This document shows, one piece after another, positions 1-42,407 of a stretch of 42,407 nucleotides of DNA. The notes under the pieces were generated by a model that did no database searches, had not been told where the DNA came from, and saw nothing but the letters and a program-made list of their open reading frames with translations. Position 1 is the stretch's first letter. Each line of letters opens with the position of its first letter. A program made the translations under genes and the position numbers. Location: IMG/VR virus record IMGVR_UViG_2565956608_000007, positions 1 through 42,407 of that record; one strand, given 5' to 3'. Source of the DNA: a virus. Its lineage: Duplodnaviria; Heunggongvirae; Uroviricota; Caudoviricetes.

Positions 1-1506
<1,506 letters not shown>

Positions 1507-1662: not shown

Positions 1663-1692
1663 GCTGGCGGGAGTTGAACTCGCGTCCGAAAT
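1663..1692. repeat. attL core: 30-bp copy of the ssrA 3'-region sequence (GCTGGCGGGAGTTGAACTCGCGTCCGAAAT)
   Basis: 29/30 identical to 41355-41384, which lies inside the intact ssrA gene; about 120 bp beyond the integrase stop. Confidence 0.65.
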
Positions 1693-1742
1693 GTATTTAA
1701 CTCATTGAAAATAAACATTTCTATTGCTGTTATATACCTCAA

Positions 1743-1759
1743 GTGCATTTTACGTGCAT
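1743..1759. repeat. 17-bp direct repeat GTGCATTTTACGTGCAT (left arm), candidate integrase arm-type or accessory site
   Basis: Identical 17-mer at 41239-41255, both on the prophage side of the att cores. Confidence 0.45.
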
Positions 1760-1814
1760 ATTGAGGTCTGTCTAACGTCCTGATTCTGTCCAACATTTTG
1801 AAATATTTCCCCCG

Positions 1815-25819: not shown

Positions 25820-26230
25820 ATGAAATACGTTGTTTCCGGTGGCGCTACTCTCAGCTTTGCCGACGGTTCTAAATTTGAGTTGTCTCAGGGCATCCACGAC
25901 AGTTCCTCTTTCCCGAAAGAAGTGAAGGACCACTGGGCCTTTAAAGCCTATGCGCGCCCGATTGACGAAGCCGACCTGGCGAACGAGCAGAGCAATGAAG
26001 ACCTTTCCGCGAGCCTTGTTCTCCTGGCAGAAGAAAATAACACCCTGAAAGCGCAGCTGGCTGAGCATGAAAAAACCATCACCGCGCTGGGGAATGAAAA
26101 CACAGACCTGAAAGCGCAGCTGGCAGCTGCTCAGGCACCTGCAGGCGGTAAACCTGCCGACAGCACGGACAAAACTGATAACACCGGCGGGGACGCGAAA
26201 AATGCCAAAAAACAGCAGGCTTCCGACTAA
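25820..26230 (+). CDS. hypothetical protein with coiled-coil segment
   Basis: 136-aa ORF with TGGAG ribosome-binding site. Confidence 0.5.
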   Translation: MKYVVSGGATLSFADGSKFELSQGIHDSSSFPKEVKDHWAFKAYARPIDEADLANEQSNEDLSASLVLLAEENNTLKAQLAEHEKTITALGNENTDLKAQLAAAQAPAGGKPADSTDKTDNTGGDAKNAKKQQASD

Positions 26231-39624: not shown

Positions 39625-40668
39625 TCATATTAAAGCTTTTCGTAAAAGCGTCTTCCCAATTAAAACACCTTTTCGCTCTACAGTTTTATGCGCAAAATAA
39701 CAAACTATAAATAACAATGTTAATATTTGAATGTTGCTGTTGATATATGGGATTTGTAATTTTGAAACCACTAGTGACAAAGTATACCAAATCCAGTTAT
39801 GGAACAAGTATACAGCATAAGTCATTTCAGACAGTAAATTGCATGCTTTGGATTCAATGAATTTATCTCTAAACAACCACGAAACAAGGAAAATAATAAC
39901 TCCTGTAAATGCGTAGTTGTACTGGCCCCAGAATGGATTTATTTTCTCAATGAGAGATAAATGCAGATAGAACATAATTACGATGGATGCTAAAGCAATA
40001 ACCCGATTAACTAACTTATGCTCTACAAGATACACTACTACACCGATAAACAAAAATGGCGTATACAATGTAAAGTAAGCATTATGAAAATCATTAGCCA
40101 CAGGGAAAGGGTTAATGCTGGATATAAAAAACGATACAACAAGAAGGAGAACAGTCAAAACGTTTCCTTTGTTTATTATACCAGCTTTTTTAACTAATCC
40201 CATAAACACGTAGAACATCATTTCTATTCTTAGTGTCCATTCTACGCCAGCTAATGAAAGTGGAGTGTTAAAGAAATCACCTATGAGCAAAAGTCTTGGG
40301 ATTAGTATAGTTAGAGGTGGAACACCAGCACCGTTATAATACTGAACTAACATTTCTGCAATAACTGCAAAAATGTATAAAGGATATATTCTAAAAATCC
40401 TTTTTAAATAAAATTCAAAAGTTGCTTCTTTTTGTAAAACGTGGGTTATGATATATCCTGAAACAAGAAAGAAGATTACAACCCCCATAGCCCCACCGAA
40501 ACTGGCATCGGCAAGTAGACCGTAAAATGATCTAAGTGTTACGTGGTTACTTGGATCGCTCGCCCACGAAGCTAAATCTTTGTTGAACTTGTGGCCTAAC
40601 ACCACAAGAGAGAATGCAAAGATACGCATGTAATCTAAAAAAAGAATTCTACGATTGTTCATTTTCAT
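39625..40668 (-). CDS. acyltransferase family 3 membrane protein (OafA/Oac-like O-antigen acetyltransferase)
   Basis: About 347-aa polytopic membrane protein with acyltransferase-3-type N-terminus (RILFLDYMRIFAFSLVVLGH); markedly AT-rich; located between tail genes and attR. Confidence 0.75.
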   Translation of the reverse strand: MKMNNRRILFLDYMRIFAFSLVVLGHKFNKDLASWASDPSNHVTLRSFYGLLADASFGGAMGVVIFFLVSGYIITHVLQKEATFEFYLKRIFRIYPLYIFAVIAEMLVQYYNGAGVPPLTILIPRLLLIGDFFNTPLSLAGVEWTLRIEMMFYVFMGLVKKAGIINKGNVLTVLLLVVSFFISSINPFPVANDFHNAYFTLYTPFLFIGVVVYLVEHKLVNRVIALASIVIMFYLHLSLIEKINPFWGQYNYAFTGVIIFLVSWLFRDKFIESKACNLLSEMTYAVYLFHNWIWYTLSLVVSKLQIPYINSNIQILTLLFIVCYFAHKTVERKGVLIGKTLLRKALI

Positions 40669-40809
40669 CAAAATCTTATTGTTGATGAGGCTATTTTATA
40701 GCATGAACAGCGAAATTCATAACAGGTTGGTGGTTGGGGTGGTGAAAAATCTCATCATGGAAGAAAAATCTGGCTGTCAGCGTTTATTAATGCTGGCAGC
40801 CAGCACATT

Positions 40810-41076
40810 TTACAGCCCAACCTGGCGAACTGTCGGGAACTCAGAAACCAGCCACATATCGGCCTCTTCAAACATATCCTCCAGCATGCGGTTGAGTTTT
40901 TCCCGATCGTTTTTGCTGGCATCGCTATTCAAGCCGTTCGCCTGCATCGGCTTCACCCTCACTTCGGCATCAGGGAAGATCTGGTGCACTCGCTTCGTCA
41001 GCTCAGCCAGGATAATCTCTCTGGCCCCTTCAAGTCCCTCTACATTTCGCTTGTCATAAACCAGTTCAACGAACAT
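40810..41076 (-). CDS. dinI: DinI-family protein
   Basis: 88-aa ORF resembling DinI (acidic C-terminus EEADMWLVSE); GGAGG ribosome-binding site; two LexA boxes upstream. Confidence 0.7.
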   Translation of the reverse strand: MFVELVYDKRNVEGLEGAREIILAELTKRVHQIFPDAEVRVKPMQANGLNSDASKNDREKLNRMLEDMFEEADMWLVSEFPTVRQVGL

Positions 41077-41195: not shown

Positions 41196-41230
41196 AAAAA
41201 CCCCAGACCGTGAGATCTGGGGTTCTTTTA
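41196..41230. terminator. bidirectional Rho-independent terminator downstream of ssrA
   Basis: CCCCAGA-loop-TCTGGGG hairpin with A-run 5' and T-rich tract 3'. Confidence 0.55.
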
Positions 41231-41238
41231 AAGTGCAC

Positions 41239-41255
41239 GTGCATTTTACGTGCAT
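41239..41255. repeat. 17-bp direct repeat GTGCATTTTACGTGCAT (right arm)
   Basis: Identical to 1743-1759. Confidence 0.45.
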
Positions 41256-41347
41256 TTTTTTGTCTTTTCTCGGTCTGCGCTCTGTCTGGTCAGAGTCCGT
41301 AAGTAGCTGTTTTTATTGCCGCTGTCCGGTTGTAGTCCTATCAAAAG

Positions 41348-41710
41348 TGGTGGAGCTGGCGGGAGTTGAACCCGCGTCCGAAATTCCTACATCCTCGGTA
41401 CTACATGCTTAGTCAGTCTTTACATTCGCTTGCCAGCTGCGGACGGACACGCCACTAACAAACTAGCCTGATTAAGTTTTAACGCTTCAACCCCAGGCAG
41501 GGCTTCCACGCGATCTCTTTTGGGTTTGACCTCTCTTGATCCCCGTCCTAAGAGCGGAGGCTAGGGAGAGAGGGCTCTAAGCAGGTTATTAAGCTGCTAA
41601 AGCGTAGTTTTCGTCGTTTGCGACTATTTTTTGCGGCTTTTTACGAGGCCAACCGCCCCTCGGCATGCACCTTGGGTTTCGCAAATCCCGTCGAATCCAG
41701 AATCAGCCCC
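41348..41710 (-). ncRNA. ssrA: tmRNA (transfer-messenger RNA, SsrA)
   Basis: Minus-strand sequence begins GGGGCTGATTCTGGATTCGACGGG and ends ...GGTTCAACTCCCGCCAGCTCCACCA; 363 nt; directly downstream of smpB. Confidence 0.95.
41355..41384. repeat. attR core inside ssrA (GCTGGCGGGAGTTGAACCCGCGTCCGAAAT)
   Basis: 29/30 identical to 1663-1692. Confidence 0.65.
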
Positions 41711-41924: not shown

Positions 41925-42407
41925 TTAACGGTGGGCATTTTTCATGATACGCGCTTTATCCACCTGCCATTCGCGTTCTTTGATATCTGAACGTTTATCG
42001 TGCTGTTTCTTACCTTTGGCGACGCCGATTTTCACTTTGCACCAGGCATTTTTCCAGTACAGGGAGAGCGCCACTACGGTATAGCCTTCTCGATTGACGC
42101 GACCGTACAATGAGTCCAGTTCGCGCTGGTTGAGAAGTAACTTGCGGGTACGGGTAGGATCGCACACCACATGCGTGGAGGCCACAGCCATTGGCGTGAT
42201 GTTAGCGCCAAACAGAAATGCCTCTCCGTCGCGCAGAAGGACATAGCTGTCGCTGATATTGGCTTTTCCTGCGCGCAGGGATTTAACCTCCCAGCCTTGC
42301 AGGGCAAGTCCCGCTTCGAACTCTTCTTCGATAAAGTATTCGTGACGGGCGCGCTTGTTAAGCGCGATGGTCGCTGAACCAGGTTTATGTGCTTTTTTCT
42401 TCGTCAT
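41925..42407 (-). CDS. smpB: SsrA-binding protein SmpB, complete
   Basis: 160-aa translation [58 protein letters not shown]... recognised as enterobacterial SmpB. Confidence 0.95.

Follow-up and report, generated by a model that had tools for sequence, protein, structure and literature searches.

The prophage in ssrA and its recombination genes

The window, that is, the whole stretch of 42,407 nucleotides that was analysed, carries a prophage of about 40 kb contained between two core repeats and inserted in the tmRNA gene ssrA (Table 1). Its flanks identify the host as E. coli: in many complete genomes of this species glaH is found directly beside ssrA, the left flank of the window being joined there to an intact ssrA.

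Table 1. Positions of the attachment-site elements and genes of the prophage and its flanks
Feature	Position	Strand	Remarks
glaH (csiD)	1-978		left flank
attL core repeat (B-O-P')	1663-1692		30-bp direct repeat with 41355-41384, one mismatch
IHF-like site TTTCAATGAGTTA	1698-1710	-	one mismatch to WATCAANNNNTTR; consensus match only
int-proximal (P') pair AAGTGCATTTT + ACGTGCATATT	1741-1751, 1752-1762	+	+66 to +87 from the overlap centre
Three GTC[T/C] units in 11-bp phase	1766, 1777, 1788 (1766-1791)	+	directly after the int-proximal pair
Tyrosine integrase (Int), 390 aa	1815-2987	-	beside attL; Pfam PF12167, PF00589
Excisionase (Xis), 69 aa	2942-3151	-	overlaps the start of int; phrog_2917 excisionase, E=2e-40 (PHROGs)
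Intrinsic terminator, 14-bp stem and T-run	41196-41227	-	3 bp outside the outermost arm unit
Inverted unit GTGCAC	41233-41238		abuts the int-distal pair
int-distal (P) pair, ACGTGCATTTT twice	41237-41247, 41248-41258	+	contains the 17-mer 41239-41255
Four GTC[T/C] units in 11-bp phase	41262, 41273, 41284, 41295 (41262-41298)	+	after the int-distal pair
attR core repeat (P-O-B')	41355-41384		inside functional ssrA; overlap candidate 41364-41370
ssrA (tmRNA)	41348-41710	-	ARAGORN
smpB	41925-42407		beyond ssrA

The 7-bp overlap is probably AGTTGAA (1672-1678 and 41364-41370), which corresponds to the T-loop of ssrA and is flanked by GCGGG and C[T]CGC. We placed the crossover in this T-loop because the block that is invariant across all related phages ends at GGGAGTTGAAC (GAAC) and the T at 1680 is phage-derived. 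With such a crossover, the phage arm would supply the last nucleotides of ssrA, from the T-loop to the 3' end.

The integrase carries at residues 12-80 an N-terminal arm-binding domain that matches PF12167 (Arm-DNA-bind_2) over its full length (E=6.9e-20). AF2 modelling of Int residues 1-100 reached a pLDDT of 64 from the single sequence; the final run used an 18-sequence alignment and gave a model (pLDDT 80) of three strands and one helix. Coherent fold matches of this model were AP2 domains, the arm-binding domain of the HPI integrase (3jtz, 3rmp), lambda Int (1z1b) and Tn916 Int (1bb8). In a search of the PDB by sequence, lambda and Tn1549 Int were matched over their core-binding and catalytic domains only, and the N-domain stayed without a match. 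PF12167 is the arm-binding domain of the IntBPP-1 subgroup (PF12167/DUF3596), which comprises the integrases of BPP-1, the Stx2a phage and Gifsy-2 and whose members are termed putative integrases (PMC8138268); a beta-stranded insertion in the catalytic domain also characterises the subgroup. The integrase of the window resembles this subgroup by its full-length PF12167 N-domain with a predicted three-strand/one-helix fold, and it resembles the P4-like integrases through the arm-binding domain of the Yersinia HPI integrase (3jtz; 3rmp, 'recognition of attP substrates by P4-like integrases'). In the searchable literature on arm-type sites at ssrA, on DUF3596 and on PhiR12, no description of the arm sites of these integrases was found. 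The small protein encoded beside int aligns with the annotated xis products of phiES15, LLS and phiNP, and a Pfam search with it returned no family match.

Tandem 11-bp units on both sides of the core

The initial annotation had drawn attention to an identical 17-bp direct repeat, GTGCATTTTACGTGCAT, in the two prophage arms. Exactly two copies of this repeat are present, both on the + strand. Counted from the att core repeat into the prophage, the copy at 1743-1759 lies at a distance of 51 bp and the copy at 41239-41255 at 100 bp, in agreement with the distances given there; no further match to GTGCATTTTACGTGCAT with up to three mismatches was found in the 42,407-nt window. Three recurring words of at least 17 nt occur in the whole window, namely the att core, the GTGCATTTTACGTGCAT repeat and a coding tandem repeat (26044/26107). 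At this last place, in the structural-gene region of the prophage, lies a 63-bp tandem duplication (26024-26124) with 76% identity over 38 nt and an exact 18-mer. The longest word common to the two arms (122 and 155 bp) measures 17 nt; when the arms were shuffled 2000 times with dinucleotides preserved, it was most often 7 nt and at most 13 nt long. The initial annotation had also proposed that the copies would flank the core in attP. Phage LMessi and two IMG/VR contigs (L013 and L018) possess a contiguous attP in which one pair stands on each side of the core, and this proves the arrangement after circularisation.

Each 17-mer corresponds to two tandem 11-bp units with the consensus A[A/C]GTGCAT[T/A]TT. 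Together with the inverted GTGCAC, the attP comprises five units, arranged as two tandem pairs with a spacing of 11 bp plus a single inverted copy (a 2 + 3 split). The int-distal units, inverted one included (41233-41258), lie at -134 to -109 from the overlap centre, and a distance of 196 bp separates the two pairs in the attP of this prophage. All units are outside the core, in phage-derived DNA on both attP sides, and their GTGCAT hexamer is unrelated to the core arms GCGGG/CCCGC.

Searches of IMG/VR gave about 490 relatives for the window's integrase and about 500 for the LLS type. In the int-proximal arms drawn from integrases 90-99% identical to that of the window, the pair starts 74 bp past the core GGG (+74) in 56 of the 59 distinct arms, and on the other side it starts 122 bp before the core GGG (-122) in 41 of 41 distinct arms. 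The hexamers are 96% conserved, as compared with 65% for the core-side spacer, 79% for the IHF-like region and 80-85% for the sequence beyond. In phiES15, PhiR12 and many IMG/VR loci, the pair and int are separated by cargo genes (about 1.4 kb), and the pair remains at the core. Cargo is also present beside the int-distal arm of the window (39625-41076, minus strand); it consists of a low-GC gene of the acyltransferase-3 family (39625-40671), possibly involved in O-antigen or surface acetylation, and of a DinI-like gene (40810-41076, minus strand) with a promoter-like match at 41141-41113.

The same layout was found with other unit sequences in more distant relatives. Clade B (LLS, phiNP, Kp4866-6 and about 40 distinct IMG/VR arms), whose Int is about 66% identical to that of the window, uses the same ssrA core and has two int-proximal units xCG[G/T]nnC[C/T]TTT (CGKnnCC) at the same +74; LLS and phiNP carry a pair of this kind on the opposite arm as well, at the equivalent place and together with a palindromic inverted copy. 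Pseudomonas phage JBD68 (Int 38% identical) carries ATGACAGC twice on each side of its tRNA-like core (3' end), with an inverted copy of the ATGACAGC unit outermost on the distal arm. Pseudomonas phage MD8 (Int 31%) has TGGTACAnAAG twice and a second such pair 184-195 bp away. No repeats were seen in the short stretch inspected of Halomonas phage H4907 (Int 33%). Four integrase clades thus display one layout with four unit types (GTGCAT, CGKnnCC, ATGACAGC and TGGTACA), and Xis co-varies too. Judged by the layout shared with LLS/phiNP, JBD68 and MD8, the two-pair arrangement is a trait of the family and the unit sequence is specific to each clade.

These comparisons bear on the idea of a chance repeat, or of a neutral remnant of a duplication between the arms. 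The exact identity over 17 nt does depend on the inner spacer variant TTTAC, which is not common to both arms in most relatives; these have TTCAC as spacer on the int-distal side and TTTAC or TTTAA on the opposite one, and they retain the GTGCAT hexamers. The exact identity is partly incidental, the functional unit being the tandem 11-mer. In the shuffled arms the common word never exceeded 13 nt, the hexamers are the best-conserved non-core positions across about 100 distinct arms, and analogous pairs persist in relatives down to 31% Int identity, all of which makes chance or neutral descent extremely improbable.

Another explanation could be that the repeat acts as a nucleic-acid hairpin, either a terminator or a processing signal in the 3' trailer of pre-tmRNA or in int read-through RNA, the similarity between arms being secondary. 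A terminator-like hairpin was indeed called at 41230-41258 on the + strand, and palindromes occupy the outer int-distal end in the window (GTGCAC/GTGCAT), in clade B (GGAGCCG/CGGCTCC) and in JBD68 (ATGACAG/CTGTCAT), with a symmetric double change (GGAGTCG/CGACTCC) in the E. coli remnant arm. However, pairing is possible for the outer int-distal units only, since in clade B, JBD68 and MD8 the int-proximal pairs consist of units that are repeated directly, are not palindromic and are unable to pair. In clade A (the GTGCAT type), the flanks repeat directly (G-TGCA-T in both units) and not symmetrically, the palindrome is broken in several variants, so that a conserved stem with compensatory changes was not found, and a strong terminator is already present 3 bp from the hairpin candidate. 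We consider this explanation very unlikely.

In the lysogen, that neighbouring terminator (41196-41227) would stop the transcription of ssrA some 120-150 nt beyond the mature 3' end, and in the phage form it would stop int read-through. By analogy with lambda tI/sib, whose position it shares across att from int, a sib-like retroregulation of int is conceivable. Two other inverted repeats were considered in the arms. The first, CTCTG-TCTGGT-CAGAG (41280-41295, int-distal arm), shows compensatory variants (CACTG/CAGTG, and CACCG/CGGTG in clade B), and its common variant TGCTG/CAGTG can pair on the + strand only via G-T wobbles; it may be a structure of the pre-tmRNA trailer or a symmetric protein site. 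The second, ACCTCAA...TTGAGGT around the int-proximal pair, was dropped as a hairpin since its variants are not consistently compensatory.

The units could also be operators through which a phage or host transcription factor controls an arm promoter, with no relation to recombination. A sigma-70-like match (10/12) at 1774-1747 on the minus strand does overlap the int-proximal pair, but one such match is what chance predicts in the int-proximal region, and no equivalent promoter match overlaps the int-distal pair. Moreover, a constant distance to the core on both sides, across four integrase clades and several host genera, is unexpected for an operator, and we give this possibility scant credence.

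Int, Xis and the lambda layout

The arms contain further elements that might take part in recombination. On the int-proximal side, the IHF-like site occupies +23 to +35, in the interval that separates the core from the units, and 58 of the 82 distinct arms retain a match there with at most one mismatch. On the int-distal side there is no IHF consensus match at up to one mismatch, and only phased GTCY units are present. These GTCY units follow the pairs in an identical register in both arms (12 bp past the second hexamer, then 11, then 11), with further units at 41324 and 41335. They are common to clades A and B, none was seen in JBD68, and two of the int-proximal ones fall within IHF-consensus matches (+98 to +110 and +116 to +128). 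The int-distal array sits between the pair and the core, where X1-X2 lie in lambda. From this arrangement, the phased GTCY units are candidate sites for Xis or for another bending protein.

Since the initial annotation had left the choice between integrase and accessory factors, the possibility has to be weighed that the GTGCAT units bind Xis or another accessory bender, the arm sites of Int being some other motif such as GTCY. Xis is encoded beside int and, like Int, it differs between clade A and clade B (the LLS/phiNP type), with a distant Xis-like ORF present in JBD68 too; because both proteins differ between the clades, co-variation with the units cannot separate Int from Xis. Likewise, neither protein is singled out within clade B, because identical Int N-domains and identical Xis coexist there with varied units. 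Xis-type proteins bind head-to-tail repeats about one helical turn apart, as at lambda X1, X1.5 and X2 (PMC4880445), and a second phased motif, GTCY, does exist in both arms. However, the sites of lambda Xis are on one arm only, as head-to-tail repeats between an arm-type site and the core, and the GTGCAT units do not fit this description, being on both arms with one of them inverted. The int-distal GTCY array fits it better. In addition, the GTCY units and the recognition-helix-like residues of Xis (NKRxQRGxW) are both kept in clades A and B, so that Xis would be better placed on GTCY than on GTGCAT. Finally, five units split as 2 + 3 fit the lambda arm-type pattern. Binding of Xis or of another bender to the GTGCAT units is thus unlikely, and the layout favours the integrase.

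The comparison with lambda, whose attP has five arm-type sites (PMC4880445), was made on the sequence NC_001416. There, P'1-3 are tandem sites at +53 to +82 that touch the int stop codon, P2 is inverted at -112 to -103, P1 lies at -142 to -133, H' at about +30, and the tI/sib hairpin just outside P1. The two layouts agree closely. In common are five extra-core sites distributed on both arms; a tandem set near the int stop (+53 to +82 in lambda, +66 to +87 here); a distal set around -110 to -140, in which one site is inverted in each system; and a terminator hairpin outside the distal set. Between the core and the proximal set, lambda has H' and the window an IHF consensus match. They differ by the sequence of the unit, which is unrelated (GTGCAT here, C/AAGTCACTAT in lambda), by its period (11 bp against 10 bp) and by the split (two plus three here, three plus two in lambda). 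The distal arm here is without an IHF consensus, the N-domain of Int belongs to PF12167 and not to PF09003 as in lambda, and the core is in the ssrA T-loop whereas that of lambda is in the gal-bio attB. In the KplE1/HK620 module, from an enterobacterial prophage at a tRNA-type gene, IntS reportedly has arm-type sites, and the TorI RDF has separate sites.

Taken together, these data suggest that the 17-mers are arm-type sites, bound by the N-terminal domain of the heterobivalent tyrosine integrase that the prophage encodes, a reading to which we assign a probability of roughly 0.7. It relies on the position and number of the units, on their conservation, on their co-variation with the integrase clade and on the presence of an arm-binding domain in Int. 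The assignment to arm-type or accessory sites made in the initial annotation is therefore strengthened by the constant distance to the core, the top conservation within the arms, a clade-linked sequence in a kept layout and the Int N-domain, and it is refined by the 11-mer as unit, by the number of five units and by the lambda-like layout. We infer that Int rather than Xis is the binder, as we infer the respective parts of the sites in integration and excision and those of IHF and Xis. According to this model, the catalytic and core-binding domains of Int would occupy the T-arm core of ssrA, and the N-terminal domains of the same protomers would reach the distant 11-bp units, bridging them to the core. 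IHF would bend the P' arm DNA between core and units at the IHF-like site (+23 to +35), and bending of the P arm would be ensured by another factor or by Xis, possibly at the phased GTCY units. The intasome would in this manner be assembled, and its directionality set, in the lambda fashion.

Remnant arms at ssrA and the meaning of the attP map

The end of ssrA was compared with the empty site of E. coli A13, and the displaced ssrA 3' end at attL (1661-1667, junction 1663/1664) was found to lack the TGGAG of TGGTGGAGC. Out of 102 distinct attL junctions of related prophages, 20 have lost 1-5 nt from the same 8-nt stretch, across several host flanks and with both integrase clades, and the identical 5-nt loss accompanies a clade B prophage that occupies this E. 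coli flank (L177). Among 5,426 complete E. coli genomes, none has the damaged end of the window joined directly to ssrA. Because the attL-side end is without TGGAG and none was found joined to ssrA, precise excision would damage tmRNA, leaving it without the acceptor 3' strand and CCA, and the host may depend on the prophage arm for its tmRNA.

The 'bacterial' flank of attL itself (1500-1662) is a decayed int-distal arm of an ssrA phage of the LLS/phiNP type, 83% identical to the LLS attP. This remnant has a unit pair and a palindrome of its own, GGAGTCGCGACTCC GTTGCGTATCC (about 1544-1570), as well as phased GTCY units of its own and a minus-strand terminator (1512-1533). Since the decayed arm is found also in E. 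coli strains whose site is unoccupied, a phage once supplied the ssrA 3' end and the terminator of these strains. Klebsiella/Enterobacter-type ssrA flanks (L026, L034, L091, L146, L156 and others) also present tandem pairs, about 135-160 bp from the ssrA core and at 12-bp spacing, namely CGTGTACC, AGGTGCCTAA, TGGGCCTA and TGGTGC[T/C]AA, each present twice. They are probably arm sites that additional families of elements have left behind at the tmRNA gene.

The present analysis provides a map of an attP of about 260 bp (about -171 to +87 of the T-loop, outer terminator included) with its five 11-bp units, its IHF-like site and its terminator. The concept is the ordinary lambda paradigm repeated, and the value of the map is practical. 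It serves a widespread group of enterobacterial ssrA-integrating prophages, for whose integrase group the arm sites were previously unmapped, public records of these phages annotating only the 20-26 bp core. It can be used for setting prophage boundaries, for integration vectors and for the design of binding experiments. The layout rule extends to PF12167-type integrases, and the two-pair layout in four clades would be the first map for this subgroup.

Several phage clades compete for one and the same T-loop crossover in ssrA, where their arms come to lie next to each other, and in the window a decayed LLS-type arm abuts a GTGCAT-type attL. It is tempting to propose, although we regard this as tentative and rather doubtful, that the arm units and the Int N-domain diversified together at constant geometry, and that the arms, not the core, set the specificity among co-resident ssrA elements. 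If so, each integrase would assemble only on its own arms, without cross-excision or deletions between tandem elements, and these phages would constitute natural orthogonal pairs of N-domain and arm site on one common attB.
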